Of a stretch of DNA of 64,000 nt, positions 8,147 to 56,814 are shown in pieces (positions within the stretch are counted from its first letter, which is position 1; each line of letters starts with the position of its first letter). The stretch comes from a virus, in the IMG/VR virus record IMGVR_UViG_3300021256_000005. One strand, 5' to 3'. A program made the position numbers and the translations under genes. Under the pieces are notes generated by a model. That model was given only the letters and a program-made list of their open reading frames with translations, made no database searches and had not been told where the DNA came from.

Positions 8147-8641
8147 TTACTGTTCGTCAAATGCGCTTAATACGTCTAAATCATCAAGTTCAATTGCAGA
8201 ATTTTCTTTCAGCGTATTGACTAATTCATCAATTTTTAATGTAGTAAATTCATACGTATTCTTTTCCGCTAAAACAGATTGCAGTTCAGTGTTTAATTCT
8301 TCAGCACGTTTTTTGTACGCATCTACGAACTCAGGCTTTACTTGTCGCAGTGATTCTGTTACCACATTACCTTCTGCGTCATGGATTTCATTCCCTTGTT
8401 CATCTAATTTTGGCTGATGAATTTCGTCTGATTTTTCTTCCCCAAAATATTCAGACTTAAAGTCATTGACTAAACCTTCACGGAATGTCTTAAACTTTTC
8501 TACATCGCCCTGCATCTGTTTGATATTGTTGAGTAATTTCCACTGGATTTTAATTGGCAGTTCTTTGATTTTATACATTTTGAACTTGTCAAACCAATCA
8601 TTCATCGTAATTGCATCTAATAAACTCAACTCTTTTGTCAT
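8147..8641 (-). CDS. Acidic hypothetical protein (164 aa), possibly a fibre/baseplate accessory
   Basis: Good RBS (AAGGAG). No catalytic motifs recognised and no HUH/Y1 transposase motifs. Confidence 0.55.
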   Translation of the reverse strand: MTKELSLLDAITMNDWFDKFKMYKIKELPIKIQWKLLNNIKQMQGDVEKFKTFREGLVNDFKSEYFGEEKSDEIHQPKLDEQGNEIHDAEGNVVTESLRQVKPEFVDAYKKRAEELNTELQSVLAEKNTYEFTTLKIDELVNTLKENSAIELDDLDVLSAFDEQ

Positions 8642-8693
8642 TTTATAAATCTCCTTTTAAATCATTATTATATTTTAATACAGACAAAAATGT

Positions 8694-9935
8694 CTAACTC
8701 ACATTATCTAACCAATAAATCTTAGAATATTTCCAAAGTAATTTGCATTTTCTTGCGTTAACTTTTTTGCAATGTTTTGTTGGACTTTGAAAATTAAGAG
8801 CATTTTGTTCTGGGTATAAAGCTGTTACATACCCTCTATGCGTTTCACCGTTCCTAAAAGTGTACTCAACCAAATCCCTATGTTTAATTCCAAGAACGTT
8901 ATCTGTCTTAGCCTTACTTTGTCTTCGCATAGGTTTTATTATCCATTCTTTAATTTCACATGTGTCTGGTCGCAAATCTGTGATGCATATGGCATCATTA
9001 GAATGTGATTTTGTAATTCCCCACTCAATACGCTTATTTGCCGTATCACCTCCGTTTGTTAAATGTAACATTCCTAAATTTGATAACTGTTCTCTCAGCC
9101 ATTTTTTACCTACCATTACATGCTGTGCGTAATTCAGATTCTTATTATCAGAAGAATTTAACAAAGTAAAGTATCTGTTCATATATAATTCTTCTACGCC
9201 TTCTGTTTGCTGATGACATTGTGTACATAATGTAATAAGATTACCAAGTGAATTGGAACCATTCAGTCTTCTTGGTTTAATATGGTGTACCTCTAATCTA
9301 CAATTAGATTTTCCACATTCCATACATTTGCAACCATCTCGTAAAATTACAGCTTTACGAGTATTTTCGTCCAATTTATTTGATTTTTGATATTGCCACC
9401 GATATGGTTTATAACCATCTGTCAATGCTCTTATATCAATGGCAACATCTTCTAACCAATAATTCGTTATATTTATCCATTTATTAAGTTGATTGATCAC
9501 TCTTATTGTTGCTTGACGTTTTTGTAAAATACTTGGTGCAATTCTCCCTTTTCGTTTAGAAGATTTTCTGTTATTAAATCTCGCCTGTCTATATCTTTTA
9601 TGATAACGGTGATAACGCCTAAATCCACGCCTAATGTCCATAAGATGTTTTACATCATTACGCTGTTCAATGATTCCTTTAAAAACTACTTTGTTTGTCG
9701 TCTGACATTTCTGTACTAATGCGACACCAATATGAAGACCGCCGTCATCTATTCCACAACGGATTTCATCTTTACAGATTTCTTTATCTGAAATTTTCTT
9801 TTTAAGCTGTATGACCATTGGATATTTGCTAACCAATGTTGCTCGTTTCTTACGAATGAGAAACCAAGCCTTCTGTTCTTTAGTTGGTGCTAATTGTTTA
9901 TTATTAGCATCCAATACAAAAGCATAATTTGTCAT
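8694..9935 (-). CDS. iscB: IscB RNA-guided nuclease (PLMP domain, split RuvC with HNH insertion, TID)
   Basis: PLMP-like N terminus ([15 protein letters not shown] ... RATLV). RuvC-I is [14 protein letters not shown]. An Arg-rich bridge helix follows ([22 protein letters not shown]). RuvC-II is APSILQKR ... [11 protein letters not shown] is CMECGK ... LEVHHIKP ... [10 protein letters not shown]. RuvC-III is [14 protein letters not shown]-like C terminus is present ([10 protein letters not shown] ... GETHRGYV). I placed the start at MTNYAF, which is preceded by AAGGAAGG; the track ORF extends to 10010. Confidence 0.9.
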
Positions 9936-10254
9936 TTCTGACGCCTTCCTTTCGGAGTATTTTTCTTCGTGCCAATATCGAGTAGAGGACATGTGTTTCC
10001 CTGTTGTCAATGCATGACATTAGCATTGTTTCTTGGTTTGCACTCACAGAGCTTCAGACTGAAGATTACATCTAAAGGTGTGTCTTTACCTTACTACTTA
10101 ATGTAGTTCATATCTGCAACATATCTTTCGATAGTAGCAGTCACTTAGGCTCGAAACCTATTGTTAAGCCATAGACAAGAGACTTAATGTGTCCACTCTT
10201 GTCTATGTTCACGTACATATTTCTATGTTTTTGATTACTTAACAATTAGTCCTT
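9936..10254 (-). ncRNA. Candidate omega-RNA (HEARO-type) of IscB
   Basis: In IscB loci the omega-RNA lies directly 5' of the ORF on the same strand. This roughly 320-nt block is ORF-free and helix-rich, for example a 12-bp stem catagacaagag/ctcttgtctatg at 10171-10208 and cttcag/ctgaag at about 10053-10065. Confidence 0.6.
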
Positions 10255-13200
10255 TTAATCGTTTTTCTCAAATCTACACTGAAAAACAGCGTTTATTTTA
10301 ACGTCATTTGCTGTCACTTGAATGGATTTCGCCCCTGTCGAGTGCTGATCGTTCCAGTAGAGATCCGCATCAGCATCATTACTTTTACGCTCCCAGATAA
10401 AATACTTTGCATCAAACTGATCGGTCACGTCCTCAGAATTCTTCATCAGCTTTGCTTTCAACGTAATTTCGCCAGTGCCGATATTCGTACCATTTGGGGT
10501 ATCAATATACACTTGATAGGTTTGGCTGTTTTGAATATCCGTATCCAACTGTTCTAATTTGTCAGCTGTATTGTTCTTAAAAGACGTATATTCTACACCG
10601 AATTGGTTGCCGTTACCATCATATACTTTAGCAATATCAATACCGCCGTACTCATTTGGCTCGATAATGTCAAAACCAAGTTTGTCTTTGGACAAAGAAT
10701 TGTCTTTGACCATATCGTTATCAATCAAACCGTCAGCAATAGCATCCTTTGTGATACCATCTGGTGACAATACAACTGCGCCTTGTGGATTACGCAAAAT
10801 CAAAGATGGTTGATTGGAAGTATCATAGCCAAGTTGCACGCCAACATAAGACTTTTGTTTGCCATCTGTGTCAACATATTTACCGCTGATCTGAAGCTTT
10901 GTGCCATCCATTACCATTGCGCCGTTTTCAGAAATGATACGCATTTTATCCGAGACTGTAATGTCTCCTGCCGATAAGTCTGCAACGGTCAGTTCTTTTG
11001 CAATGCCTTTAATAAGAGTGGCTTTTTGGGCGATTAAATCATCCGTCAATTGCTTGTCAACAGTCAAAATATTTGCATTAATAAGTTGTGCCGTAACAGC
11101 GTCAGCGGATACTACTTTGGATGATAACTTGTCAAAAAATGCTTGATCTGCATTTAACAAATTGGTTTCAATTACATTTGCTGTCACCATCTTAGATGAA
11201 AGCTTGTCAATATTCGCTTGATCTGCTTCTAACAGTTTTGTAGAAATCGTGTTTGCTGATAAAAAACTACCAGTCAACGTTCCAAAATTTTGTGAAACGC
11301 TATTACTGATAGCACGATTAACCAGTCCGTTACTTAATAACGACCGAATCATTTCTGGTGTAAAGATATAGTTAGAAATTGTATCAGACTGATTTAAAGA
11401 ACCTAATTGAATACTGTTTTTGGCACTCCTAATAGAATTATTTAACAGGTTTGAAAAATCATCTCTATGGTTTTTATAGTCTGTTATGGTAGAAAATGTA
11501 ATAGTAAGCCCACCGTCATAAATACACGGATTATATGACATACTTACAATACGCAATGTTAGAAACGTATCGTCAGAAATTTCCACATGTACAAATGAAA
11601 ACAGCTTTAACGGTTCATATATATTCTTAAATTCTTCAAGCCCGACAATGTTATTTACCGTATCTTTCCAAGTGTATTGCGGATGTGCATACTGATATAG
11701 TTGATCTGTTGCTTGATATAATAAGTCGGCATGTTGATTCAAAATATCTTGCGTATTCATCATATCGGTAATAATGATATTAGAATCTTCAATATCGGTA
11801 TGCTTATATAAAGATTGCAAAATACGTTCTTCTTCATCAGTAAAACCAAAAGTTTTTCGTTGTACGCTATGCGCAATATCATTCATCTGCTTCTGATAAC
11901 CAGTCATAGCAGAAACCGCATTATCATATTCTTTGGTTCGTTTTTCCAATTCAGCTTTACAAGCGTTGTATTGCGTCTCATAATCTAAATACAGCTGATG
12001 ACACTGCGAATAGTATGTATATGCACTAACGGTTGGTTCTTCTGGTTTCTTATATTCTTGCAATCGCACAAGATTATTTTGATATACTTCCAACAGATTT
12101 TTTAATTCTGTGACACCGTATAATTTATAATCTGTTTTATAATTTTTAATTTCATCTTCTGACTGTTGAAAATATACAAAGTCTGACGGTGAAGATATAT
12201 CTCCACGCTCCAACATAACACCACAAATATCAAATGTTGTGTTTAACTCGTCCCCAAAGAAACCAATCTTCAAAATAGGCGTAGTAGTGTCGGATTGTAC
12301 GACAACCTTCATAAACTGTCGAGTCCACGTTGTAGTAACAGGCATGGAAGCACATTTATCTTTTGTTGGTGTTTCATCTTTGTTGCTTGCATATACATAA
12401 ATCAGTATCGCACTAGAAGAACGCACATAAAAACTCAGCATATAAGTAGTGTTATATGCGTTTAAGTTACCCTGTGTGATACCCCAAAAATCCGTATTAC
12501 CAGAAATTTTGGCATATGAAGTAATACCGAATACTGGCGTATTGTTTTTCTTTGGCGTATCTTCTGTAACTGTCACAGCAAACGTTGTTTGTGCATCTGT
12601 CTTATCCCAGTGGTCACTACTAGAAAATGTTGCATTTGAAACAATATTTCCTGTACCGTAAGAAATGATTTTACTTCTCGTATCCGTAGTAATATCATCT
12701 TTGTTTTGTAACGCACTAATAATAGACGGTAACACATAATTCATTGTTTGCTCATATAAAGACCAATCCGCAGAATTTTTTAGCGCATTAAAATCAAAAT
12801 TTCCATCAGAATCTACATATGTATTTTCTAACGCTTTAATAATGGCTGTGTTGTCTGTATAAGCAGTCTCTAAGTCTGGCGTGTCCATGTATTCCCAGTC
12901 ATTACTTACGGTGTCATTCGGAACTCTTGTATCAAGTTCAGTAACGACTTTTTGACTATCCATATACTGTTTGATTTGTTCAACGTATTTTGGACGCTGT
13001 TCATCACGAAACTTTACCCATGAATTATATTTATCAATAAGTGTTTTCGGAACAAACTTTTCATCCATAAAATATGAATAATCTTCAATATCGGAATCGC
13101 CAAAGTTGGAATACAAAACATTGCCAAATCCATCACCACCACGAACTGTAGCAGAAGTATATAATTCGTTTGCTTTTGTAGCTTCGATATTTTCTTGAAT

Positions 13201-14055
13201 ATTGCGCCAACCGATAAACACGTTTGTATCTTCGCCAATATTATCTACATAAGTAGCATTGATTAAACGATTATCAGTATCAAACGTAAAAATACATTGA
13301 AAAGCCTGTGATACATCCTGCGTTAAAAAAGAATATACATCTTGATTATCAACGGAAAATGCGTATACTTCATTTGGCAAATATACTTCACGTGTTGTAC
13401 CGTCGTATTTTTTTATAGTCCGTGGCTTTGTGTCTATTTTTCCAATTTTCCACAAACCTTGCTCAATATTGTCAACCCAATTTTCATGCATTACGCCATT
13501 TTCATCATACGTGACAGTAGAAGGAATAATACCAGACTGAGCCAATATAATATGTAACAAGGATCTTTCTGGGTGTATATCATCATAAAATACAATTGGT
13601 ACATATACTGGCTGATTCGATTGCTGTAATAGGTCTTTGTAAAAATCTTGATCTTTATATTTGTTATAAAACCGCATCATCCAGTCGTTTGTGTTGCCAG
13701 TACCGACTTCAAACTCTTGCAGGTCGAAATTCTGCAACTGAATCTCCGCAGACTCCGCAACAACTTCAAGATATTCCGAACGCTTTCCATTGTTTACAAT
13801 CTTTGGTGCTTCATTGATGATGTACCAAATACCATCGACATATATCTGCATCATTTCAACGATAGACGTATAAAATGATGAATCAATTCCGTCAATATAC
13901 CGATCAACTTCAAACGATAATTCTGCCGTATTCTGTGCATTTAGATTAACAACAACAGATGATTTTTTAACACCGTTTAGCGCACCTAATAACCGCCGAT
14001 CAGAAGTAGCGAGATAAATTTCATTCTCGTCTGCTTTACCATTGAAGTAATACAT
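10255..14055 (-). CDS. Tail-associated lysin / tail tip protein (Tal; prophage-tail-endopeptidase-like N terminus, 1266 aa)
   Basis: The N terminus (MYYFNGKADENEIYLATSDRRLLGALNG) is typical of siphovirus minor structural proteins. The gene follows Dit with a 1-nt overlap. The C-terminal half contains coiled-coil fibre repeats (LLNADQAFFDKLSSK and similar). Confidence 0.8.
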   Translation of the reverse strand: MYYFNGKADENEIYLATSDRRLLGALNGVKKSSVVVNLNAQNTAELSFEVDRYIDGIDSSFYTSIVEMMQIYVDGIWYIINEAPKIVNNGKRSEYLEVVAESAEIQLQNFDLQEFEVGTGNTNDWMMRFYNKYKDQDFYKDLLQQSNQPVYVPIVFYDDIHPERSLLHIILAQSGIIPSTVTYDENGVMHENWVDNIEQGLWKIGKIDTKPRTIKKYDGTTREVYLPNEVYAFSVDNQDVYSFLTQDVSQAFQCIFTFDTDNRLINATYVDNIGEDTNVFIGWRNIQENIEATKANELYTSATVRGGDGFGNVLYSNFGDSDIEDYSYFMDEKFVPKTLIDKYNSWVKFRDEQRPKYVEQIKQYMDSQKVVTELDTRVPNDTVSNDWEYMDTPDLETAYTDNTAIIKALENTYVDSDGNFDFNALKNSADWSLYEQTMNYVLPSIISALQNKDDITTDTRSKIISYGTGNIVSNATFSSSDHWDKTDAQTTFAVTVTEDTPKKNNTPVFGITSYAKISGNTDFWGITQGNLNAYNTTYMLSFYVRSSSAILIYVYASNKDETPTKDKCASMPVTTTWTRQFMKVVVQSDTTTPILKIGFFGDELNTTFDICGVMLERGDISSPSDFVYFQQSEDEIKNYKTDYKLYGVTELKNLLEVYQNNLVRLQEYKKPEEPTVSAYTYYSQCHQLYLDYETQYNACKAELEKRTKEYDNAVSAMTGYQKQMNDIAHSVQRKTFGFTDEEERILQSLYKHTDIEDSNIIITDMMNTQDILNQHADLLYQATDQLYQYAHPQYTWKDTVNNIVGLEEFKNIYEPLKLFSFVHVEISDDTFLTLRIVSMSYNPCIYDGGLTITFSTITDYKNHRDDFSNLLNNSIRSAKNSIQLGSLNQSDTISNYIFTPEMIRSLLSNGLVNRAISNSVSQNFGTLTGSFLSANTISTKLLEADQANIDKLSSKMVTANVIETNLLNADQAFFDKLSSKVVSADAVTAQLINANILTVDKQLTDDLIAQKATLIKGIAKELTVADLSAGDITVSDKMRIISENGAMVMDGTKLQISGKYVDTDGKQKSYVGVQLGYDTSNQPSLILRNPQGAVVLSPDGITKDAIADGLIDNDMVKDNSLSKDKLGFDIIEPNEYGGIDIAKVYDGNGNQFGVEYTSFKNNTADKLEQLDTDIQNSQTYQVYIDTPNGTNIGTGEITLKAKLMKNSEDVTDQFDAKYFIWERKSNDADADLYWNDQHSTGAKSIQVTANDVKINAVFQCRFEKND

Positions 14056-15216: not shown

Positions 15217-18200
15217 TTACCTCAGTCCTGTTTTTCGTATATCTTGATACATACGCTTTGAAGTATATTCATAGCTTTGTTCAAGTAAATCTTTTACCTT
15301 TGGATATGTTTCAGCATCAATACTACCTTCAACATTTAACAAACTATCATAGTGAATATTGATATTTGGAACAATCGTAGTAGCCTTACGTGTTGTATTT
15401 ATCAATTTCTGCATACGCTCTACAGAATCAATAAAATCTGGAACGCTATTCTGCGTGAACGATTTCGGAAGTACCATTTCACCATATTGCGCAGTAATAA
15501 TACCATCGTCACCATTCATTAAATCAGATAACGGAATCAGCCGATCAATAACACCGCCTTGCGAATACCCTTTGACACCACGATTATGCAATGCGCCCTT
15601 AAATTCTTTTGAGTAGATTTTATTGTTCTTAACATATTTCTTGTAAGATTTTTCATCATACTTAAAGTCTTTAATAACGCCAGTTGGCAAATTTACTCTA
15701 CGTACAATAGAATTTTTTCCTTTTGTATTAAAGAATAAATTACCATGGCTATCCACTGTTCCTTGCACACCGTTCATCTGAACTACAGTACCACCAATAA
15801 TTCCTGCTTTTCTAAGAGAGTTCAAAGACAACTTCTGGAATTTCTTAGCGTCTGGCGTATATGAGTTAATAATTGCCAATACTTTTTGCCGTATTAACTT
15901 TTCGGCTTGTTTTTGTTGAACTGTCTTTGCTGTCGATTTTTTCTTAGCAGTAGTAGTTTTTGGTGTGGTTTTAGTAGTAGTAGGAGTAGTAGTTTTTGCA
16001 GGAGCAGGAGCGGGTTTTGGTGCATTATAAACATAATCACCACTTGCGTTGTCTTTCCCTTTAGATGCGTTTGTGTTAGTTTTACCAGCGGTACTATCTG
16101 GAATTGAAGTATCTGTTTTAACAGTAGGCGTATCTAATGTAGCAGAATTGTGTGTGTTCAAATCACCGCTAACATTACGTCCCGCATCAGAAGCAGTGTT
16201 GATATTTGTATGTACAGGTTTTGTCTTATTGTTAAGACCTTCTGTAGTTGTACCAGTCCGTTTAATAACATCATTGATATAATTATAGGCATCATCATAT
16301 TCCGCTTTTATCTTATCAAGCATATCCTTGACAATATCAATCTGGAACTGACTATTTGTTTTTAATTGATCTAATGTGTTATTCAGTGCTTTATTGGTAT
16401 TGTTGGCAAGATCGTCATAACCATCAGAGATCAAATTGATTTTATGACTACGAACCGTATCGTCATAATCTTCCTGTGCATCTTTTAACTGCTGTTGCAA
16501 TTGCAGTAATTTTGCCGCACCTGCTTCACTTGAAACACCTTGCAAAGCGGCTATTTCAGCTTTTAACTGGTTAATATCTTTATTTTTATCTTTGAGAGTT
16601 TTATTATAATCATAATAATCCTCTTTTGCAGATAAAGCAGATTTTCTCAAGTTGATATTATCTTGCAACACCTGATTCTCATTTTGAATCTGTGTCTGAT
16701 AAATATTGATAATAGACTTTTTGAGATTTTCATTCGACTCAACGGCTTGCTGAATACTTTGTGTATATTCAGACATACGCTCCGTCAATGTCTGTTCAGA
16801 TATTTCACCAGATTTGTACAGCTTCTGAATAGATGCAATGCCATTTTTCCAACTCTGAATTGCGTCAATATTTTTATTGATCTGTTCGCCAATCAATAAT
16901 AATCCCGCATATCCGCTACGATTTAATTCGCCCGCATCCGAAACAAACGTATCACTATCAAGTAGGTTAAACAAATGAGAAGCATCACGAATATCATTTT
17001 GAATCTTCGTAATCGCACGTGTAAACTTATTGACAGCCGTATTGACTATATTGTCAACCTGTTGGTTAATATCTTCACCAACTGATAAAATCTGTGAATC
17101 AACGTCACTAATCTGTTTTGCTAAATCTTGATATTTTTGACTGTTTGGGTCATAATCATCAAGCTGTTTTACCATTTCAGCACGCTGATCTCGCAACGCT
17201 TTTAAGTAAGATTGATTGTTCTGAATCGTCAGTTGAGCGTTTTTAATAGCATCATTATCCATCGTATCAAACGATGCATGTTTTGATGTATTATAAGTCG
17301 CAACTGCTTTCAGTCCATCGGCAATACGCCCGAATTTATCAACCACCCACTGTTTTAATGTGAGTCTGATCTCTTTCATCTGGTTAATCAATTCTTGTGA
17401 CGTATTCTTTGAGTCAATTACCTGCTGTTTGATTTCATTATATGTAGCTTTAATGCTCAGATAGTATTCACGTTGTGCTACATATTCATTTTTAGAATCA
17501 GTAACTTTCTTCTTGTCTTGTGCTGTTTTTGCCTGTTGTTTGCTTAACGCCTTTTTATCAGCTTTTACCTTTTTGGAATTTTTACCATATTTCTTTTGGT
17601 CTTTTGCTAATTTAGCTTGCAGTTTCTTTTGCTTCTCAACATCTTTAGCGTACTGCTTCGTTGCTTTTGTGTTAATAGTATTCGTATCACGAACCGCTTT
17701 ACGAGCATTAACCATTTCTTTTGCATAAGCATCTTGCTCTTTTTCGTATTGAGAAGTAGCTTTATTTTGTAAACTATGTTGTTTCGCTAAATTGCTATAA
17801 TAACTTCCAGAAATATTTTTACCCTGATTTTCGAGAAGCTGATTAGTAGATTCGTAAATTCCTTTTTCAGTCGTGTAAACATTAGCAGAAGTCTCATAAT
17901 ATGTTTTAATATTATCAAGACGTTGCTGTTCAATATCCGCAATCTTTTGTTGCCATGCAATCTGTTGATCTACAGCTGACTGTGCTTTATCATACCAAGA
18001 CTGATATTCATTGATTAACTCTTTGGTGACTGGATTTTTAATCTTCTGAATTGCCTTATAGTTTCCATCACGTACAAGTTTTTTGTATTTCGATGAAAGA
18101 CTAGCAGTCACAGAATATTGTTTGCCATTCTCTTTGAATTTTACAGTACGTTTTTTTACAGAAGCATCGGCTTGCTTCATATACCGTTTAGCTGATGTGG

Positions 18201-21200
18201 TTGCTTTTCGGTAAGAATCTAACGCAAGGTTATATTCGCTCTGCAAATTTTTCTGACGACTAGTAAAGCTATGTGTAGTATTGGTAGAATTATTATTGTA
18301 CCGATCTAACCGTGTATTCACACGATCAATCCACCGCTCAATCCAGTCATGCAAGTTATCAAATGCTGACGATAATTTATCAGCCGCTTTGCTAAGTTTT
18401 TCCGAAGAACTTAAAGCCTTGGAGTTACCTTTACCGCTAGACTTAGATTTAGACTTAGAAGAAGATTTTCCAGACGATTTACTCGATGATTTACTTGACG
18501 ATTTAGAGGTTGATTTTGACGAAGATTTAGAAGAAGTTTTCTTCTTCTTTTTTTTCGGGTTAGAAATTAAACTAACATGTCCAGTATCACGATTTGCACT
18601 ATAGTATGCAGGAATAGAGCCGTGAGCAAAAGAACCAATCAGTCTGCCGTGTCCTTCGTTAGATGTAACGTATCCATTCTTTAATAATTCAGCAGTTTGC
18701 TTGTGGTTGAATACAATATCGCCAGATTTTAACGACTCAAAATGCGCTCCACCATCTAATAAAGACCATTTTCCATTACGAACAATTGATTCTTGACCAA
18801 TTTCATTGACCAACGCTTTTTGATCTTTTTGTATTGTCACATCTGTGCCGTTGGCAAAGGCGTGAAAAGAACCGTTTGCTTTCGTCATAAATAACGGCTG
18901 TGTACCAGTTGGCACGTTTACCGTTGCCGCATGACCTGTCACACCAATACCCGTTTTACCAGGATATTTATATGCTTTCCCATCACCACTGGTAATACCA
19001 GTGCTACCAACTTTCACGATAACTCGTTTCGTAATTGGTTGACCTAACTCATTAAACAAACTAAAAATATTGCCAGTAGAAGCAGATATTTTGACTGTTT
19101 TATCATGCAGTGCTTTTCTATCTACACGTTGTATAATTTTAGTTGCTAAATCTTTCGCTGACAACTTAACCGTTTTATCTTTAGGTTTCTTCTTGTCAAT
19201 TTTATCAACTTTTTTACTAGCGTTGTCTTTAACGGAAATCGTAAACACTTTATCCATATCAAGACCAGCCGCTTTGAACACCTTATCCAAATTCGACTTG
19301 TCTTTTTTACTCATGGAAATTTTTAACGTACTTTTTCCTTTTGAGTTAATTAACCCCGCAGACTGTTCAGCTTGTAATAACTGATTGTACTGCGATGTAA
19401 CAATACCATTACTAGAATCACTAAGTTTTCCTTTTTTGGTTAATAACTTTGACCAAGAAGTAGCGGTGCTTGATACGTCTTTGGAAACCGTCTTATATTT
19501 CGACTTTGCAGATTTATTATCACTCTTATTAAGTGCTTCTTTATAAGCGTTTAAATCTTTTGTCGCATTAACAACACTAGAATCATCAACTTCAACTTTT
19601 GTCTGAAAAACTTTTCCGTCACTTGCTAAAAGCTGATCTAAGATTGTTTTATCATCCGATTTAACGTTGATTCCCAGATCGAAACCAATCTGATTACCGC
19701 TCTTGTTATAAAGATTTTGTAATGTCCTTGCGGAAGACACCAAATCTTCTTTAACCGCAGACTTTGTTTTATTGCTAACAATTCCGCCTTGTTTAATGGT
19801 GTCTTGCACAGACTGATAAGAATTATACTTACGTCTCAGTGTTTGTAACGCTGTGATCTGTTTCTTTTGATCTTCCGTAGCATTACTGGTATCAGCGTTC
19901 ATATAACTTGATACATATTTATTACTAGCATCCGCATTTTGACGCTTATTATAGTTTAACATCTGTAAACTATGTGTGTAATATTTGACTTTATCCCAGT
20001 CCGCAGAATCAAATTCAGATTTCTTCGTGAGTTTACCGTTATCTGTTAATTTAGCAAGTTCATTAGCAACATCTGTAATTTGTTGTTTTGCTTTTTGAGG
20101 ATCTGTAACATTAAAATCAATACCAATAGTAGTGACGCCATCTGCTTGCAGATCTTTTTTGTCTTGCTCAATACGTTTCTTTAACTCTTTTGTGCTAACT
20201 GGTTCATAATCAAAATGGATTTCAAAACCTTTTTCTTTTAATTCAGATAAAAGCGTATCATAAAGACTTGAACTAATACCCATCTTTTTAGCGGCAGTAT
20301 TAGTATCCATATTAAGGTTATAACCATTTTTATCGTCTTTTTTGAATACACCTTTCGCTATCGCATCTTGAATAAAATTATTTGCACTATCAGTGGTATC
20401 AGAACCAAACCAACGATTTAGTTTACTCTTTACTTTTGTTGAATAAGATTTAGCAAATTTATCAGCATCCCACTTGTTTACATCTGTATCATCTGGGAAA
20501 AACATGCTAACAAACTTTTGAAATCCTTCGTTGCCCCAGTCATGATTGTTGTACAACTGTTGGATAGATTTTTTTGCAGATCGAATAGTATCACTTTGCG
20601 CACCGTACGAACCTGCGCTAATAGCCGTTTGCCATTGATTGAACTTTGATGTAAGAGCAGTGTAAGCAGATACTTGTTGTTCGACTTGACCAATCTCGTC
20701 CTTCAGAGTATCTTGTTGGCGCAGTAACCTTAATTTTGTTTCACTGTCAGTCGTATTATTAATAGATTTTGTAACATCATCATATTGAGTTCGTAAATCT
20801 TCGAGTTGAACTGATGCATCTTTTAAATTAGTATCTGCATAGGCAGAATTTAATTCATTCAAAGACTTAACATTCAGCTTAATACCATTGGCAGAATTTT
20901 CAAAAAGTTTATCTGTATTTAGCCCACTTTCAGAAAATAAACTTGTCAGATTACTAATCGAAGTGGAAGATAACCCCGTAGAAGAATTACTTTCTTTTAA
21001 TGCAGTTTCAATATTAGATATATTCTTTTTTTCTGTATCTAAATCGAACGGAAGAGTAAATCCACCCGTAATGGAACCCATCGAAGATGCGTAATTATTT
21101 ACGGCTTCTGCGGCAGATGTAGCACCACTTACTGCTTCTAGCCATGCTTCTTTTTGAGAATTAGTAAATTTGCCTACATACTTATCAACGTCAATCCACT

Positions 21201-24200
21201 TACCACTTAATAATTGCACATATCCAGTTTGTTGATAAACAGCGTTGTTTGCTTCATCAAGTGATTTTCCCGCAGAAACAAACGATTGTTTCATTTTATT
21301 TAATGAATTAGAAGTAGTTGTAACGGTTGCCGTTTCCCAATTATTGTTGGATAATGGTTTCCGTTCAAATATGTCTGCTTGTAGCGACTTTTTAACACGC
21401 TTGTTGACATTTTCAACATCAGCAATTCCAAGAGATTCTTTTAATTGATCGACAGACGGAGCATTAGAACCTTTTAATCCAGATTTTAATATATCGACAT
21501 CTTTATCGAGCAGAGATAAATCTTTACTGGTTAACTTATCTTTATTGCTCATTTTCTTCTTGATAGAAGCATAAGCATTTGTTAATTTGTCTCCACCTTC
21601 ATTGATGCCTTCAGTAAGATCACTAACATATGAAATAACAGCCGATTTCGGATTGCCACTAGACATAATATTCTGAATAGCATCCGTACTCATATTATTA
21701 ACTAAATCAGAAGCAAGAGTGCGCTGTTGTTCATTTAATTTTTGATAAGTACCGTCTAAGCCTTTTAAGTATCCAGTAATTGACTGTTTTACTGTCGAAT
21801 TAGCCGCTTCGAGTGTTGCTTCTCTTGTTTTGATTGCTGATTGGATAGCGTCAGAAGTAACTTCATCGCCATTTGTTACACCAAGTAATTCCTTAATGGC
21901 AGGATCTTGCGAACCCTTTTTGATTTTATAATCTTTGAGTCGTTGAATTTCACCAGTGATACCAGTGTACTTCATCAACTCATCATATTGTTCGCCTTTT
22001 GCACCAGAAGCAAGTATATAACCTTCGGCTTTTTGCTTTTCGTCTAATTTTGTGTCGGCTTTATAAGCTTTAACAACGGAATTAAAACCAGAATTTTCAA
22101 TATCGTCACTACCATTAAAAGCAGTAGCGTAAGCCGTTTGTTGCTCTTTTGCAAGTGCATCATTTAAGCCTTCAACGTTGCCTTTAAGGTTTACGATAGC
22201 GTTACCTTGTGCGTCATATCCAGATACCAGAGTAGGATACATACTAGCAATTTGATTGCTAATATCTAAATATCTTTCATACTGATCGGTAGATAAAGAC
22301 AAATTTTGGTTTTGATCTCCAACCCCTTTAGACAACTGCATATATTCATCTTTAAAAGCGGAAACCTGTTCGCTATGTTGACGATAATTTTCAAGCTGTG
22401 TCTTAGAGGTTGTCATCATGTCTGATGTAGCTTGTTTAGCTTCGGCTTTTGTAACGATTGCTTTACTAACAGCAGTCATTACAGCTTCGATACCAATAGA
22501 TGCCGCCGCCATAATACCGCCAGTAGCTAAACCAGAAATGGCATTCGCACCAAAATTTTTCAGAACACCTTTAATACCGTTGTTAGTCAATGAGTTATTA
22601 TAAGAAGTACGTGTCTCATTCTCCTTCTTAATAAGCTCATTTGTTTTACCAACTACAGCGGTAACAGACGCTTCGCCATCGAAAGATTTCTTCGCTTGTT
22701 GAGCAAGTGCTTGATGTGTTTTTCCTGCATCTTCAATGGATTGTCCGTTCTTCTTTAAGTCTGCAACTTCCTTTTCCCATTCATCAGCCGACTGAGACAT
22801 TGCACGTTTGATGGAGTCAGAATTTTCCGTAACCTCTGGAAGCATAGGGAGAGGATTTTGTTCACCGTTCCAGAAACGAGAAAAAGCACCTTTAACACCT
22901 GCGCCAGTTTCTTTTCTGGCTTGTCTGCGCAGTTGTTGTTCAGATTTCCGCTGATCGACTGGTACTTGTGCTTGTCCTGTCAATAATTCTTGATAACGTG
23001 ACTCTGCTAGATCATTATGATTACCTACATTTTGCGCAAACCTTTTTACATCTTTAACAATGTTAGTATCTTTACGTTTTGCACGGGTGTAACCAAAAAC
23101 AGTAGCCATCATGCTTAATCCAGTCGGAACAGCACCCATCGTACCCCAAATTTTAGTTACGATATTTAATAATGCCGTACCACCAGAAACAGCATCTTTC
23201 AGACCATCAGAATCAAGAAAGTTCGCCCAAAATTTCTGTTGTTGATTTTTGAACGCTTCTAATCGCCCACTCAAACTGTCCTGAACAATTTTAATATCAC
23301 GATCAGAATATCCCGAAGAGTTCTTAGAGGATTCATAAACATCCTGCAACATATCACCATTTTGTAAAATGGATGCCACGATAGATGCTCTATTTTTACC
23401 GCCCAGTAACTCAAGTAATGCCGAACTACGGTTTGTGCCATACTTTTTATCTTCTTCTTGAATCTCGCCGTATACTTTGGAAATATCTAACAAGGTTTCA
23501 TATACATCTTTATATGAACCATTAGCCTTTTCCATACTTACGCCCTGATAGCCGTTAGAAGCTACCGCCGTAAGTTTCATCAAGTCAGCATTGATTTTGG
23601 ATTGTGTTTGAGGAACGCCACTAGTATCCTCGCCTTCAGCTTTTAACTGTTCACCAGAAAGCTTTGTTCCCTGTAAACGAAGTGCGATGGTTCTTAAACC
23701 AGTACCAACTTGCTCAGAGTTCTGAATAATTGCATTGCCCGCTACAGTCAGAGCATTTGCTTTATCCATGTCGATTCCGAGGGCGGACAATGTGCCAGTA
23801 GAACGCTGTAAAGATTCCGCTAATTCTTGCGGCGAAATACTAAAGTTATTACCAATCTTACTCAGCTTGTCTACAATGTCCTTTTTGCTCATATTTTTAT
23901 AAGCCTGCGACATTGATACAAGCGAAGTAGTAGCATCGTTTACATTTTCAAAGTCAGAGATTTTATATAAAATCGTTGCTTCTTTTGCTGACTGCTGTGC
24001 TTGACTTAAATTTTCACCAAGTCGCATCCAATCGGTTGTAGATTTTTGAATATCCAAACCATTTGCAGATGCTTCTTTGGCTGTTTTAAAACTATCAACT
24101 TTGGCGAATTTTTCAAGCGAAGAATAAGAATCATTCGATACAACCTTCATTTCTGTCAGTGCATCATCTAATTCTTTTACAGTGTTGATTCCCTGTTTCA

Positions 24201-26256
24201 GTCCGTCCCATGCTTTCATGGCAACGCCAAAAGTGCCGATGTATGAGAAAAACGCCAAGGCTTTACCTTTAGCAGAAACTAATGCCTGTTCAAAACTTGA
24301 CAGCTGTTTGATAGGCGCAGACATATCCAACGTATAGCCTAACCCGTTGACAGTATTACCAGACATTTTTAACAGCTGTTCACTACCTTGTGCTGTCTGT
24401 AATGTTGCTGATAATGTTTGGATACCTTTTTGACTTTGCGGAGTATGAACTTTTAACAAGCGCATACCATTACGACGCTGTTTAGCGATTTCTGCGTTGA
24501 ATGCATCACTTAACTGCTGACTATATGTTTTAATACCATCCTGTGCAAAATATGTAAAGTTTTTATTGGCTAAACTACTATTGACCTGTTTACGAAATTC
24601 TGATTTTAACTGTTTTTGTGAAGCTTCAAACTCTTTATATTGTGATTCATAATATGACGATAATTTAGAATTGTTATATAGGTTTTTTAACTGTTTAATA
24701 TTATTGTCATGCAATGACTTCTGCATCTGATACTGACCAACCATATCCGCATTGGCAGTGCCAGATTCAGTCATATATGCCGAATTAGAAGTATACAGCT
24801 TTTGTCCAGACACTCTAGCTTTTTGCAGGGCAGTCATAAACTGTTGTTCCTGCTGTGTCATATACTGTTTCGTGCGTGATATATCTACAGTCGGATTCCT
24901 AACCAACGTCCCATCAGACAAGAAAGAACCAGTTACTTTTTGTAGTTTTGTATTACCAGTGTCAAAAACGGTAGTAAAATTAACTAATCCATTTGAGGTA
25001 CGTTTTACAGAACTTGTAATAACATCAAAGCCTTTAGCAACATCTTGTGCCTTTTGAGCAAGATTATCTTGCGCTCTATTGTAATTCTCTGGTGTCCAAT
25101 ATGTAGAATCAGATAGTCCATATTTATTTCTTTGTGTTTCTTTGAAACCATTAAAAACTTTAGGAACACCGTCATCAATTCTGCCAGAATATGTACGAAG
25201 CTTTCTTTCATTAGCATCTACATCAGCAGTCCACGTCTTACGTTTTTCATTGTATTGAACGCCTAGGATTTTTGATAACTCTGTCAGTTGTCCACTATTC
25301 TTTAAGGCTGTTTTAATATCTGATTTTACAATAGCTTGCGACAAAGAGTTAGCAATCCGTTGAGTATCTAATTCAACACGTGTTGGAATTTTATTTGGCG
25401 TAACAGCGTTATAAGCTGTACCAAACTTTAATGGATTATAAACAAAATTCTTATTTGAAGGAATCGTAAAATTAGCAGAAGCTAAATGTAATCCGCTTTG
25501 TTTTGGCAGTAAAAATCTTTCAGTTTTTAAATCATCACCAAAGTAATTTTTACTTTTTGGATACAAAGGATTATTTTTATAATCTTTATAAAAAACAGGA
25601 TTATTTCTTTGTAATGTTTTCCCTTCTTGTAATCTGCGTAAGTTACTTTCCTGTTTTTGGTAAATAGGAACATAAGAAGCATTGTTAATCTTTAATTTCT
25701 TATTGGAAACAAGTACCATATCACTAATTTGATTATGCAAATCATTGATAGTACGATATGTTGATTCCTCAATTCCTTTATATAAATCTGGAATTACTTT
25801 TTCAGCAGATTTCATCAAAGAAGTATAAGACGTAGGAATTTCTACGCCTTTTACTTTAGCCATATTATAATTACTAGCTATCGTCTTTGCAAGCTTACCC
25901 CCTTTATCGGTTTGCAAAAATTGAGTAGGAGATAAGTTAACCTTTTGCGCTTCTTTTTGAAATGTACTATATGCTGTTTTTAAATTTTTAGATATAGATT
26001 CTTTATCAAGCCCGAGAATACGAGACGATAACGGATTCTGTTGTTTTAATTTTCCGATCTCATTGATTGTATTTTTTACAGAACCAAAATTATCTAAAAG
26101 TTTTTTCGGATTAACAACATTAAGTTTAATGTTTCTCGTTTTCTCTAAATTATTAAGCTGTTGTTCAGCTTCGAGTATTTTGCTATCGTCTATATTGAGT
26201 TTTGCATCAATAGCGGCTTTTAATTTAGCTTCAATATCTATAACTCTACTTTTCAA
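15217..26256 (-). CDS. Tape measure protein, 3679 aa
   Basis: A TP901-type TMP core-like segment is present (ELAESLQRSTGTLSALGIDMDKANALTVAGNAIIQNSEQVGTGLRTIALRLQG). Hydrophobic Gly/Ala-rich segments and very long coiled coils are also present. It lies immediately upstream of Dit/Tal. Confidence 0.9.
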   Translation of the reverse strand: MKSRVIDIEAKLKAAIDAKLNIDDSKILEAEQQLNNLEKTRNIKLNVVNPKKLLDNFGSVKNTINEIGKLKQQNPLSSRILGLDKESISKNLKTAYSTFQKEAQKVNLSPTQFLQTDKGGKLAKTIASNYNMAKVKGVEIPTSYTSLMKSAEKVIPDLYKGIEESTYRTINDLHNQISDMVLVSNKKLKINNASYVPIYQKQESNLRRLQEGKTLQRNNPVFYKDYKNNPLYPKSKNYFGDDLKTERFLLPKQSGLHLASANFTIPSNKNFVYNPLKFGTAYNAVTPNKIPTRVELDTQRIANSLSQAIVKSDIKTALKNSGQLTELSKILGVQYNEKRKTWTADVDANERKLRTYSGRIDDGVPKVFNGFKETQRNKYGLSDSTYWTPENYNRAQDNLAQKAQDVAKGFDVITSSVKRTSNGLVNFTTVFDTGNTKLQKVTGSFLSDGTLVRNPTVDISRTKQYMTQQEQQFMTALQKARVSGQKLYTSNSAYMTESGTANADMVGQYQMQKSLHDNNIKQLKNLYNNSKLSSYYESQYKEFEASQKQLKSEFRKQVNSSLANKNFTYFAQDGIKTYSQQLSDAFNAEIAKQRRNGMRLLKVHTPQSQKGIQTLSATLQTAQGSEQLLKMSGNTVNGLGYTLDMSAPIKQLSSFEQALVSAKGKALAFFSYIGTFGVAMKAWDGLKQGINTVKELDDALTEMKVVSNDSYSSLEKFAKVDSFKTAKEASANGLDIQKSTTDWMRLGENLSQAQQSAKEATILYKISDFENVNDATTSLVSMSQAYKNMSKKDIVDKLSKIGNNFSISPQELAESLQRSTGTLSALGIDMDKANALTVAGNAIIQNSEQVGTGLRTIALRLQGTKLSGEQLKAEGEDTSGVPQTQSKINADLMKLTAVASNGYQGVSMEKANGSYKDVYETLLDISKVYGEIQEEDKKYGTNRSSALLELLGGKNRASIVASILQNGDMLQDVYESSKNSSGYSDRDIKIVQDSLSGRLEAFKNQQQKFWANFLDSDGLKDAVSGGTALLNIVTKIWGTMGAVPTGLSMMATVFGYTRAKRKDTNIVKDVKRFAQNVGNHNDLAESRYQELLTGQAQVPVDQRKSEQQLRRQARKETGAGVKGAFSRFWNGEQNPLPMLPEVTENSDSIKRAMSQSADEWEKEVADLKKNGQSIEDAGKTHQALAQQAKKSFDGEASVTAVVGKTNELIKKENETRTSYNNSLTNNGIKGVLKNFGANAISGLATGGIMAAASIGIEAVMTAVSKAIVTKAEAKQATSDMMTTSKTQLENYRQHSEQVSAFKDEYMQLSKGVGDQNQNLSLSTDQYERYLDISNQIASMYPTLVSGYDAQGNAIVNLKGNVEGLNDALAKEQQTAYATAFNGSDDIENSGFNSVVKAYKADTKLDEKQKAEGYILASGAKGEQYDELMKYTGITGEIQRLKDYKIKKGSQDPAIKELLGVTNGDEVTSDAIQSAIKTREATLEAANSTVKQSITGYLKGLDGTYQKLNEQQRTLASDLVNNMSTDAIQNIMSSGNPKSAVISYVSDLTEGINEGGDKLTNAYASIKKKMSNKDKLTSKDLSLLDKDVDILKSGLKGSNAPSVDQLKESLGIADVENVNKRVKKSLQADIFERKPLSNNNWETATVTTTSNSLNKMKQSFVSAGKSLDEANNAVYQQTGYVQLLSGKWIDVDKYVGKFTNSQKEAWLEAVSGATSAAEAVNNYASSMGSITGGFTLPFDLDTEKKNISNIETALKESNSSTGLSSTSISNLTSLFSESGLNTDKLFENSANGIKLNVKSLNELNSAYADTNLKDASVQLEDLRTQYDDVTKSINNTTDSETKLRLLRQQDTLKDEIGQVEQQVSAYTALTSKFNQWQTAISAGSYGAQSDTIRSAKKSIQQLYNNHDWGNEGFQKFVSMFFPDDTDVNKWDADKFAKSYSTKVKSKLNRWFGSDTTDSANNFIQDAIAKGVFKKDDKNGYNLNMDTNTAAKKMGISSSLYDTLLSELKEKGFEIHFDYEPVSTKELKKRIEQDKKDLQADGVTTIGIDFNVTDPQKAKQQITDVANELAKLTDNGKLTKKSEFDSADWDKVKYYTHSLQMLNYNKRQNADASNKYVSSYMNADTSNATEDQKKQITALQTLRRKYNSYQSVQDTIKQGGIVSNKTKSAVKEDLVSSARTLQNLYNKSGNQIGFDLGINVKSDDKTILDQLLASDGKVFQTKVEVDDSSVVNATKDLNAYKEALNKSDNKSAKSKYKTVSKDVSSTATSWSKLLTKKGKLSDSSNGIVTSQYNQLLQAEQSAGLINSKGKSTLKISMSKKDKSNLDKVFKAAGLDMDKVFTISVKDNASKKVDKIDKKKPKDKTVKLSAKDLATKIIQRVDRKALHDKTVKISASTGNIFSLFNELGQPITKRVIVKVGSTGITSGDGKAYKYPGKTGIGVTGHAATVNVPTGTQPLFMTKANGSFHAFANGTDVTIQKDQKALVNEIGQESIVRNGKWSLLDGGAHFESLKSGDIVFNHKQTAELLKNGYVTSNEGHGRLIGSFAHGSIPAYYSANRDTGHVSLISNPKKKKKKTSSKSSSKSTSKSSSKSSSKSSGKSSSKSKSKSSGKGNSKALSSSEKLSKAADKLSSAFDNLHDWIERWIDRVNTRLDRYNNNSTNTTHSFTSRQKNLQSEYNLALDSYRKATTSAKRYMKQADASVKKRTVKFKENGKQYSVTASLSSKYKKLVRDGNYKAIQKIKNPVTKELINEYQSWYDKAQSAVDQQIAWQQKIADIEQQRLDNIKTYYETSANVYTTEKGIYESTNQLLENQGKNISGSYYSNLAKQHSLQNKATSQYEKEQDAYAKEMVNARKAVRDTNTINTKATKQYAKDVEKQKKLQAKLAKDQKKYGKNSKKVKADKKALSKQQAKTAQDKKKVTDSKNEYVAQREYYLSIKATYNEIKQQVIDSKNTSQELINQMKEIRLTLKQWVVDKFGRIADGLKAVATYNTSKHASFDTMDNDAIKNAQLTIQNNQSYLKALRDQRAEMVKQLDDYDPNSQKYQDLAKQISDVDSQILSVGEDINQQVDNIVNTAVNKFTRAITKIQNDIRDASHLFNLLDSDTFVSDAGELNRSGYAGLLLIGEQINKNIDAIQSWKNGIASIQKLYKSGEISEQTLTERMSEYTQSIQQAVESNENLKKSIINIYQTQIQNENQVLQDNINLRKSALSAKEDYYDYNKTLKDKNKDINQLKAEIAALQGVSSEAGAAKLLQLQQQLKDAQEDYDDTVRSHKINLISDGYDDLANNTNKALNNTLDQLKTNSQFQIDIVKDMLDKIKAEYDDAYNYINDVIKRTGTTTEGLNNKTKPVHTNINTASDAGRNVSGDLNTHNSATLDTPTVKTDTSIPDSTAGKTNTNASKGKDNASGDYVYNAPKPAPAPAKTTTPTTTKTTPKTTTAKKKSTAKTVQQKQAEKLIRQKVLAIINSYTPDAKKFQKLSLNSLRKAGIIGGTVVQMNGVQGTVDSHGNLFFNTKGKNSIVRRVNLPTGVIKDFKYDEKSYKKYVKNNKIYSKEFKGALHNRGVKGYSQGGVIDRLIPLSDLMNGDDGIITAQYGEMVLPKSFTQNSVPDFIDSVERMQKLINTTRKATTIVPNINIHYDSLLNVEGSIDAETYPKVKDLLEQSYEYTSKRMYQDIRKTGLR

Positions 26257-43105: not shown

Positions 43106-43683
43106 CCTATTTCTCCTTTTGACATATTAAAACAACTATTGAGTGATATTTCTATCTGCCAATATATATCTTCATACATATTCAGACACGTAGCATATAA
43201 CAGCCGAGCAGTCGGGAGCGACCCAACTGCTTTGTTATACCTATAAAACTACGGATAGACTGCTTACTATCACCTTTTACACACCTTTCGGCACAAATAT
43301 CGTTTTGTTTTAGAATGTACTTGTATAAAAAGCCTTGTGCTACTCAGACCAAACTCCAACGTTATACACGCATTTCTGCGCTTCACGGCTCTACAGATTA
43401 TTGATATTCCGCAGGTTTGATACAGTCATCGGCTAAACCCTAACTACGGTTATTGTACACAGTACCGTCTATTGCTCTGTCCGTCTCGTTTGTTCCTTTG
43501 TATGCGACACATATTGACACATATTCTTGATGTTGAGATTCTGTCTCTCCTTGCACAATATCACTATTATGCAACAGCAATAAACACAAGGTATACCTCA
43601 TGCGCTTACTGATCTTCCGAACATTCTCAGCACCGTTGGTTTCACGGCTCTGCACTGAGTTACTCAATAGCTGTTTTAATGTT
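43106..43683 (-). other. About 580-nt ORF-poor, helix-rich non-coding block upstream of the packaging genes (candidate ncRNA, leader or pac region)
   Basis: The block lies between a strong terminator at 43684-43719 and the 42068..43105 gene. An 11-nt direct repeat ttcacggctct occurs at 43382-43392 and 43641-43651, and multiple hairpins are present. Confidence 0.4.
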
Positions 43684-52564: not shown

Positions 52565-52679
52565 ACAGTCTCCTTTTATAAATTTATGTTTGGTTTAAGA
52601 ACAGTATAATCCGGAATGGGGTTAAAGTCAAGAGAAAATAAAAATAAATTAAGTATTGACAAAATTAAAAAGTTGTGTT

Positions 52680-53580
<901 letters not shown>

Positions 53581-53599
53581 TTAAACAGTGTGGTTGCTA

Positions 53600-56365: not shown

Positions 56366-56617
56366 GGGGTGTGTGAGTTTACCTCCATATAGCTATTTTA
56401 GCTTTACACTTTTGTCAAAATGTATAAATAACCCCCTTTTGACGTCGGATAATAAAAATTACCCGACATGGCACTTTTTTGACATTTATGTCAAAAACTT
56501 AATAGTTAAATTTTTTTAACTAATTTTTTAATTATATATTATATATTATGCATAATATATTATATATCATATATTATATAAAATTATATTTGACACAATA
56601 TAAATTTCCAGAGCAAC

Positions 56618-56718
56618 AAAATACTTAAAAATCTTTAACCATTCCCATCCCATCAAAAATACTTAAAATAATTTAACTATTATTTTTGCTCTAAAAATAC
56701 TTAAAAATTTTTAACTAT
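56618..56718 (-). repeat. Three direct repeats (about 38-bp period) of AAAATACTTAAAA-N-TTTAAC(C/T)AT, the reverse complement of the TAGTTAAA-N-TTTAAGTATT boxes
   Basis: Copies lie at 56618-56642, 56655-56680 and 56693-56718. They sit 100-200 bp upstream of the consensus promoter at 56815. Confidence 0.75.
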
Positions 56719-56814
56719 CTCACCAGAACAAAAAATATATTTCATCAAATATAATTTGATACAACGTTATGCTGCACGTCACCAAACAAAAAATAAATTT
56801 TTTCCAAAAACCTA

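Follow-up and report, generated by a model that had tools for sequence, protein, structure and literature searches.

The 64,000-nucleotide viral sequence IMGVR_UViG_3300021256_000005 (hereafter the window, meaning that whole stretch) very probably carries a non-autonomous mobile element of the IscB-omegaRNA kind (OMEGA or ISC-type) in the late operon for tail genes of a large siphovirus whose host is a low-GC gut bacterium, and this element would spread by RNA-guided homing through the steps proposed below. It consists of an omega-RNA followed by an iscB gene, both related to those of HfmIscB-2, and it is flanked by a tail gene on one side and a gene for a protein of 164 amino acids (aa) on the other. 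The parts of the element and its junctions, including the predicted target-adjacent motif (TAM), are as follows.

8656..10253, minus strand: whole mobile element, 1598 bp, delimited by the ends of homology in >20 independent copies and by empty and occupied alleles of other phages
8694..9935, minus strand: iscB coding sequence, 413 aa plus stop codon, from domain, profile, PDB and alignment evidence
9936..10253, minus strand: omega-RNA scaffold (HEARO class), 318 nt, from covariation and similarity to the HfmIscB-2 scaffold
10237..10252, minus strand: 5' strand of helix P1, pairing with 10154-10169 (alignment columns 2-17 with 89-104)
10176..10213, minus strand: long hairpin inside P1, CATAGACAAGAG ... 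CTCTTGTCTATG, with compensatory changes
10254..10269, minus strand: predicted guide source GAGAAAAACGATTAAA, the 16 nt that close the tail gene, TAA stop included, placed by homology with the published scaffold
8681..8696, minus strand: short hairpin TAGACA-TTTT-TGTCTG over the iscB stop codon, candidate cis site of the far end (side of the transposon left end, LE)
8651..8655, minus strand: AGGAG, the Shine-Dalgarno sequence of the 164-aa gene and predicted TAM of the empty site, from the right-flank tabulation

The iscB gene and its product

The open reading frame (ORF) at 8694..10010 on the minus strand encodes 438 aa when read from a TTG, and the ATG at 9935, which has AAGGAAGG directly ahead of it and coincides in position with the starts of homologues, gives a protein of 413 aa (MTNYAF...). 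A sequence-only reading of this locus had listed the hallmarks of IscB in order (RuvC-I, bridge helix, RuvC-II, HNH, RuvC-III and a TAM-interacting domain) and had proposed a profile search as a check; all of these domains and the catalytic residues were found, and the search matched NCBIfam NF040563 (guided_IscB, 'RNA-guided endonuclease IscB') with 286.2 bits against a cutoff of 175, 111 bits above it, over model positions 2-313 of 314. Pfam RRXRR covered residues 6-184 (E 3e-46) and Pfam HNH residues 204-243 (E 2e-10). In a search of PDB sequences, HfmIscB (9k2z) was matched over residues 4-411 with an E value of 4e-201, followed by TbaIscB, OgeuIscB and type II-D Cas9s. Identity to HfmIscB-2 (9k2z) was 69% over the full length and 77% over the C-terminal 92 residues (320-411), which are, by homology to the solved HfmIscB, the putative TAM-interacting domain.

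The match to OgeuIscB was weak (~82 bits; aligned residues 5-119 and 114-319), and in that alignment the catalytic residues were kept: RuvC-I D63 (GIDDG), RuvC-II E162 (LEDV), HNH H217/H218 (EVHHIK) and RuvC-III H311/D314 (SHSNDA). The HNH domain, which contains CxxC pairs, is inserted between RuvC-II and RuvC-III, and an Arg-rich bridge helix, within the RRXRR match, starts at residue 102, after RuvC-I. The PLMP-like N-domain of the sequence-only reading stood in part: the segment aligns with the PLMP(T) region of TbaIscB and OgeuIscB, but the motif itself is degenerate: it is QLAPT here, and HfmIscB-2 has PLAPT. In the deposited HfmIscB chain, EVAHIK stands in place of the EVHHIK of the published table sequence and the window protein, which suggests that the depositors had inactivated that HNH histidine. 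On these alignments the gene encodes an intact IscB with every catalytic residue, and guide- and TAM-dependent cleavage is predicted for it by analogy with HfmIscB-2, for which a TAM was listed in an in vitro screen.

Homologues in public phage records are labelled HNH endonuclease, hypothetical protein or HEARO. PHROG families 2214 and 119, as well as GenBank records, give the name 'HNH endonuclease', and an ordinary protein-guided HNH homing endonuclease would accord with that annotation. Such an enzyme would have no place for the RuvC segments, the bridge helix and the TAM-interacting domain, all of which are present with conserved catalytic residues, nor for a full-length match to a solved IscB-omegaRNA structure or a conserved structured RNA directly upstream of the ORF. 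A plain HNH endonuclease is ruled out by the profile and structure-database matches, and we give this explanation practically no credence.

A covarying omega-RNA upstream of iscB

On comparative evidence, the 318 nt upstream of iscB are a conserved, covarying omega-RNA; the sequence-only reading had referred to a predicted omega-RNA. From 17 homologous copies, 77-96% identical to the window, RNAalifold derived a consensus of 78 pairs, 23 of them with compensatory double changes, and this consensus includes a long-range GCC/GGC pairing equivalent to the pseudoknot-forming helix of HEARO. The P1 columns are nearly invariant, with G-U/A-U exchanges, and the hairpin inside P1 displays A-U to G-C compensation at several pairs (columns 56/75, for example, in 7 of the 17 sequences). 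P1 pairs 10252-10237 with 10169-10154, and the RNA structure therefore starts at nucleotide 2 of the element. The window RNA is 79.5% identical to the HfmIscB-2 scaffold and collinear with it end to end, with the same AGGAC start; in Supplementary Table 1 of Kannan et al. 2025 (PMC13180657), the scaffold begins AGGACTAATT / AGGACTAATTATTAAG.

Rfam alone was discarded as evidence for the RNA: its HEARO match, at 9957-10193, scored 28 bits, far under the gathering score of 83, and was misaligned in the 5' part, and it was replaced by covariation and the scaffold comparison. When the locus was compared with GenBank phages by megablast, only 376 nt matched, from the start of the element into the first iscB codons. 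These matches, 95% identical, lay in two human-faecal phage scaffolds in which the RNA region is intact and iscB is internally deleted.

The final 16 nt of the tail gene make up the predicted guide, and read-through would place them immediately 5' of the scaffold in the transcript; the length of 16 nt is the one given for IscB guides in the literature. Left flanks differ between insertion sites, which bears on the idea of a flank-derived guide: a guide copied from the flank would mean that every new insertion retargets itself. The sequence-only reading also took the element to be inserted in a late operon and still co-transcribed, and indeed it is oriented like the genes on either side, and a search of the minus strand between 7800 and 10800 found no terminator-like site. 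This arrangement agrees with Meers et al. 2023 (PMC10055086), in which the iscB omega-RNA sits at the transposon right end (RE).

An internal promoter within the first 58 nt of the element was considered and rejected; this stretch is made up of the P1 strand and a dispensable hairpin, and a promoter scan returned fewer sites than when run on shuffled sequence. At the other end, 8667-8696 on the minus strand, inside the element 3' end and facing the 164-aa gene, reads TAGACA-18 nt-TATAAT (11 of 12 consensus positions). This site is probably not meaningful, because the region is not enriched in promoter-like sites and the -10 hexamer is unconserved in other copies.

Element boundaries and the insertion rule

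The boundaries were read from about 90 related loci and two pairs of occupied and empty alleles. Across copies the element runs from AGGACTAATTGTTAAG to TATTTAAACACAAATAA and is followed by AGGAG; both ends have GACACATT in common, and the placing of each boundary is free within up to 4 nt, AGGA being present at both junctions. The span of 8642-10254 given by the sequence-only reading is thus essentially the element, within this 4-nt ambiguity. The 5' 19-mer GGACTAATTGTTAAGTAAT was present in 19 IMG/VR contigs and 68 metagenome contigs. Three of these loci (L030, L045 and L065) had no further similarity and were set aside as probable chance matches, and a fourth, L031, has ~28 nt of the element 5' end and then unrelated sequence, and stayed unclassified.

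The element type occupies >20 different sites in other phage contigs, and the sites follow a common pattern. Left flanks nearly always end in A, often within a TAA or TAG stop, and homology starts at AGGAC; at 15 of the 34 sites with enough upstream sequence to read, an open frame in the same orientation, 60 codons or longer, ends within a few nucleotides of the element. Every readable copy ends just ahead of AGGAG, with a co-oriented ATG 5-10 nt further on. In the tabulation, 20 of 21 sites have a right flank that starts with AGGAG (read on the opposite strand, CTCCT), which fits insertion of the IS200/IS605 type 3' of a fixed motif. For the window, the predicted empty site is ...GAGAAAAACGATTAAA directly followed by AGGAGATTTATAAAATG, that is, the stop codon of the gene in Tal position and, after the Shine-Dalgarno sequence, the start of the 164-aa gene. 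Since neither stop codon nor ribosome-binding site is disrupted at the insertion point, the operon stays functional. The hairpin over the iscB stop is conserved in position in all copies, varies once in a compensatory manner (L021) and is kept in all deletion derivatives, and it may serve as a cis site of the transposon.

The TAM listed for HfmIscB-2 in Supplementary Table 1 of PMC13180657 is RNRRRD. With further sites added to the tabulated ones, the 6-nt right flanks (AGGAGG, AGGAGA or AGGAGT) fit this motif in 21 of 22 cases. The element's own junction, AGGACT, fails it because position 5 is C, and self would therefore be told from non-self by a single TAM position.

At two sites the junctions are alike over a longer stretch. 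At the IMG/VR site described in the next section (L006/L040 versus L022-L027), the two junctions agree over 12 nt, TTTTAAGAAGGA, and in the window (8656-8660 and 10254-10258) they agree over 8 nt, TAAAAGGA. Elsewhere, identity beyond AGGA amounts to 0-3 nt, which is the chance level (21 sites). A target-site duplication or homology-dependent insertion was accordingly rejected as a general rule, as related derivatives also keep the same 3' end at different sites; the 12-nt repeat belongs to the conserved end of the element. At the IMG/VR site and in the window, the element 3' end mimics the seed and TAM of its own target.

Occupied and empty alleles in related phages

Near-identical phages with and without the element were found twice. 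In IMG/VR gut phages, six contigs have the empty allele (...TTTTTAAGAAGGAGGAAT... / ...GTTTTTAAGAAGGAGGAATAAAAAG...), and the occupied allele reads ...TTTTTAAGA, then the element (AGGAC...TTTTAAGA), then AGGAGGAAT. Nine loci, including those cut off inside the element, hold ~1.6 kb between GTTTTTAAGA and AGGAGGAAT. Both allele types were found within one IMG dataset, with flanks 95-99.7% identical.

The second pair comes from Staphylococcus phages: JDF86 is occupied, phiSA_BS1 and BS2 are empty, and the flanks are 99.4% identical. The empty junction reads CTATAA followed by AGGAGAAAAG (in the longer read, CTATAA followed by AGGAGAAAAGACTATTATGG), and the occupied one reads CTATAA, the element (AGGAC...AAGAAGG) and AGGAGAAAAG (in the longer read, CTATAA, AGGACTTAC...TTTTAAGAAGG and AGGAGAAAAGAC), with no target duplication. 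The sequence-only reading had called the insertion in the window clean, and in the alleles of these other phages insertion is exact to the nucleotide, in the order stop codon, element, AGGAG-ATG. JDF86 (vB_SauM_JDF86, OQ129426.1; L104-L109, with phiSA_BS1 as L106) is a strictly lytic member of the Twortvirinae, and its element, of the same type with 60% aa identity, is inserted between structural genes, with the tail sheath gene two genes further downstream. JDF86 also encodes a TnpB (123524-124633), and Golestan101-M has an IscB at another site and is empty at the JDF86 site.

Eight other assemblies of the window's phage (L096-L103) are all occupied and identical at both junctions, with a spacing of 52 nt between the 164-aa gene and iscB in every one. 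All of them break off within the omega-RNA or iscB, the pattern to be expected of a repeat that is present in many copies or shared by several genomes in the samples. The comparison with element-free relatives that the sequence-only reading had put forward thus succeeded for the ends, which are set by the two pairs in other phages, but yielded no empty allele of this phage.

Mobility without a resident transposase

A Y1 transposase (TnpA) was not found in the 64-kb window, as the sequence-only reading had stated for the neighbourhood of the element: a motif scan was empty, and phmmer --max with three TnpA queries gave a best E value of 0.38. None was found in the complete JDF86 genome or in the full-length copies either, all of which are ~1.6 kb and carry iscB only. 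Only ~1.5% of iscB genes have a tnpA (PMC10055086), and since non-autonomy is the rule for iscB, the missing TnpA does not exclude the IS200/IS605 family.

Nested deletion derivatives of the element, scattered over gut phage contigs, point to movement of the ends in trans. Derivatives of ~520 bp (L001, L002, L029, L074 and L090) keep the omega-RNA and the fused iscB ends, and minis of 55-180 bp (L004, L012, L055, L084, L066, L068, L083 and L079) keep only the termini, with ~26-150 nt left at the 5' end and ~45 nt at the 3' end; short repeats (CCAACAAAA; TAGACA) are found at the deletion junctions. Besides the hairpin over the iscB stop, the hairpins near the ends lie inside P1, and the 5'-most of these is deleted in L049, L058 and L072, copies at three different sites. 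Likewise, one 140-bp mini with neither omega-RNA nor iscB occurs at two different sites (L066 and L068). Something in trans must therefore act on the ends, as an RNA guide cannot explain such copies at different sites, and a TnpA of the IS200/IS605 type inserting 3' of CTCCT is the simplest candidate. Three 520-bp units are present in one 301-kb contig, ERZ1673753.19. Two further loci (L033 and L035, compared with L001, L002 and L090) are hybrids whose left flank is that of one site and whose right flank belongs to a second, and therefore reflect recombination between copies, which rearranges or deletes the phage DNA between them.

The trans-acting enzyme might instead be a serine recombinase, the element being an IS607-like unit or one moved by some other double-strand site-specific recombination at a GG/AGGA core, with no Y1 TnpA involved. 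AGGA, which contains GG, is indeed present at both junctions of every copy, and IS607 inserts at GG, with AGGAG or GAGGG as most of its TnpB TAMs (PMC13565253); RNAs of the RAGATH-18/IS607 type co-occur with HEARO in Silviavirus genomes (PMC13346280), and the 12 nt identical at both junctions of one site would be expected if the target resembles a circle junction. However, most sites show no more than chance identity of the junctions beyond AGGA, the extra AGG at the right junction of JDF86 is not produced by a simple core crossover, and Meers et al. (PMC10055086) found no iscB linked to serine recombinases. A serine recombinase was not seen beside any of the copies, although no systematic search for one was made. 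We consider this route improbable.

Proposed homing mechanism

The mechanism that we propose draws on homology with studied systems at each step. Late-operon transcription would run from the tail gene into the element, and the transcript would be trimmed to an omega-RNA whose 5' guide derives from the 3'-terminal ~16 nt of that gene (GAGAAAAACGAUUAAA). The loaded IscB would cut phage genomes in which the guide sequence stands directly before AGGAGA, that is, the empty allele, and would spare its own copy, where AGGACT has a C at the position at which the TAM needs a purine. Repair from an occupied genome would copy the element in (homing), and the same process would restore the element after excision. 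First arrival at new sites would need another agent, most likely a trans-acting TnpA of the IS200/IS605 type, inserting 3' of CTCCT, the complement of AGGAG. This scheme parallels that of Meers et al. 2023 (PMC10055086), with a flank-derived guide, a TAM common to transposase and nuclease, and iscB genes that almost never adjoin tnpA. Homing between phages during co-infection is plausible. The role as a gene drive or a weapon against competitors that the sequence-only reading had suggested is still an inference, but a better grounded one, in that the predicted empty site fits the experimentally determined TAM of the closest homologue and both alleles coexist in close relatives.

Several points weigh against this proposal. 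The 5' end of the omega-RNA, and hence the guide, is predicted from homology with the published scaffold, and the TAM is borrowed from HfmIscB-2, a homologue of 69% identity. At one site (L003, L028, L032, L067 and L086), the only one with AGGACT instead of AGGAG after the element, the right flank does not fit RNRRRD; this may reflect a post-insertion mutation or a different entry route. The left flank and the element 3' end share a further 8 nt beyond AGGA at the IMG/VR site, and a further 5 nt in the case of the window, for which the proposal does not account. No cognate transposase was identified for any copy, and the TnpA-TnpB IS605 copies near L034 and L077, which hold the sole TnpA genes encountered close to copies, were rejected as candidates, their end hairpins being unrelated to the element. 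An empty allele of the window's own site was absent from an IMG/VR pattern scan, and look-ups of the exact proteins returned only occupied contigs.

Alternatively, the element could be immobile in this phage, with IscB and its RNA kept as a weapon against co-infecting insertion-free relatives (exclusion) or for some other benefit to the phage. That all eight other assemblies are occupied and no TnpA is encoded in the window would agree with this, and homing endonucleases can kill competitors when the genomes are too divergent for conversion (reviewed in PMC13565253). Nevertheless, the same cleavage event underlies both outcomes, so that exclusion differs in consequence and not in mechanism, and close copies at many sites, together with empty alleles in phages 95-99% identical, show recent mobility of the family; we regard an immobile element as unlikely. 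Less probable still is an inactive relic, with the ORF and RNA intact by chance or through recent arrival and idle in this phage. Many copies elsewhere have indeed decayed to 55-520-bp remnants, and the copy in Silviavirus VL10 has no AGGAC start and overlaps the next gene. The window element, by contrast, has a full-length ORF with every catalytic residue and an omega-RNA that keeps all helices, with compensatory substitutions across copies, and it is identical in independent assemblies of the phage.

More tentatively, the elements could form a lineage adapted to phages, with the Shine-Dalgarno sequence as TAM and insertion motif, a landing place between a stop codon and the ribosome-binding site that follows, a guide supplied by read-through, spread among co-infecting phages mainly through RNA-guided homing that is independent of TnpA, and omega-RNA-only derivatives driven in trans by full-length copies. 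We put this forward as a possibility that we would not yet favour; if true, it would be a natural RNA-programmed gene drive in viruses.

Phage context

The phage has a large genome of the siphovirus type with ~35% GC, and a terminase gene is present in the window. The genes that bear on the position of the element are the following.

10255..14055, minus strand: upstream 1266-aa tail gene in Tal position, from the synteny tape-measure protein-Dit-ORF and a C-terminal tail-fibre PHROG match; its 3' end supplies the predicted guide
8147..8641, minus strand: downstream 164-aa gene, its ribosome-binding site abutting the element, from the ORF list
15217-26256, minus strand: 3679-aa ORF in tape-measure position, from position and size

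On the minus strand the order is the 3679-aa ORF, a Dit-like ORF (phrog_33), the 1266-aa ORF, the element and the 164-aa ORF, and the tape-measure size of the first implies a very long tail. The 164-aa gene had no family match, and a protein-based locus search for it returned no relatives; the ORFs of 816 and 1141 aa further downstream had tail or tail-fibre PHROG matches. The position of the element between Tal and the next structural gene, as described in the sequence-only reading, is borne out, but the label 'Tal' rests only on synteny and the C-terminal tail-fibre PHROG match.

Other features of the window were noted apart from the element. A full-length ROOL RNA (Rfam RF03087; 300 bits against a gathering score of 99) lies at 43126-43683 on the minus strand, in an ORF gap of the head and packaging region. 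The 926-aa ORF at 48035-50815 (minus strand) matches Pfam RdRP PF05183 (E 9.5e-13), a family that includes two-barrel RNA polymerases of the YonO/QDE-1 type, and probably encodes a phage RNA polymerase; a UvrD-type helicase gene (50825-52564) adjoins it. Between the leftward structural genes and the rightward genes, ~4.8 kb (52565-57447) has no ORF of at least 110 aa, with TA-rich tandem repeats at 52.6-53.6 kb (GC 0.21) and a strongly C-depleted, G/T-rich stretch at ~54.6-56.4 kb (GC skew +0.52).

Significance and comparison with known systems

IscB-omegaRNA systems are the ancestors of Cas9. The protein, RNA and TAM described here belong to an already characterised IscB lineage, that of HfmIscB-2, and in this respect the result is mostly confirmatory. 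In the literature searched, we found no description of the stop codon-element-Shine-Dalgarno rule with its TAM fit, nor of how the element has spread in gut and staphylococcal phages, empty alleles included, nor of the families of derivatives. HEARO and RAGATH-18 are listed in Silviavirus genomes without comment (PMC13346280), and a 2026 review treats OMEGA-driven homing between phages only as a theoretical possibility. Cutting of the empty site with copying back has been shown in bacteria for IS605 elements with a known TnpA, for which the homing model is established; here, the same machinery is found in phage structural operons, including those of strictly lytic, cultivable Staphylococcus phages. 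The near-identical occupied and empty phages are a directly testable system for RNA-guided homing or exclusion in co-infection, and for phage therapy it is relevant that an 'HNH endonuclease' annotated in Twortvirinae would, judging from its sequence, in fact be a programmable nuclease.

HfmIscB-2 (human faecal metagenome contig Ga0169696_100022; PDB 9k2z) is the closest known system, with ~411 aa against 413, a collinear protein of 69% identity and an omega-RNA of 80% identity, and its TAM as listed in the table of PMC13180657 fits the AGGAG(D) next to copies of the window type. It is nevertheless a different ortholog, with other hairpins inside P1, and the copies L011 and L037 are closer to it than the window is. 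The accessible portion of the PMC13180657 text describes neither its genomic context nor phage residence or the logic of its insertion site. OgeuIscB (PDB 7xht/8csz/7utn), the reference IscB, is similar in domain order, catalytic residues and an upstream HEARO-type RNA with a 5' guide, but differs in its length of ~496 aa, its true PLMP motif and its TAM (NWRRNA/NWRGNA).

The IS200/IS605 iscB elements of Geobacillus stearothermophilus (PMC10055086) resemble the window element in that the omega-RNA is bounded by the transposon end, the guide comes from the flank, the TAM is the target motif of the transposase, and the elements are non-autonomous and predicted to cut the empty donor joint. Those elements, however, have an identified cognate TnpA and an AT-rich TAM (TTCAT), whereas the window element has a Shine-Dalgarno sequence as predicted TAM and target and resides in a phage replicon. 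IS607 TnpB elements with a guide RNA derived from RAGATH-18 share the AGGAG/GAGGG TAM, insertion at GG and a location beside Shine-Dalgarno-like sequence (PMC13565253), and they too occur in Twortvirinae genomes (PMC13346280); they differ in having TnpB (RuvC only), a guide at the RNA 3' end and a serine recombinase. Finally, the free-standing Seg and Mob endonucleases of T4-like phages and intron-encoded HNH endonucleases are likewise selfish nuclease genes between conserved phage genes, expected to cut the element-free allele in co-infection and to be copied by repair (PMC13565253). These homing endonucleases recognise DNA by protein, whereas the window element would use a 16-nt RNA guide copied from its flank.

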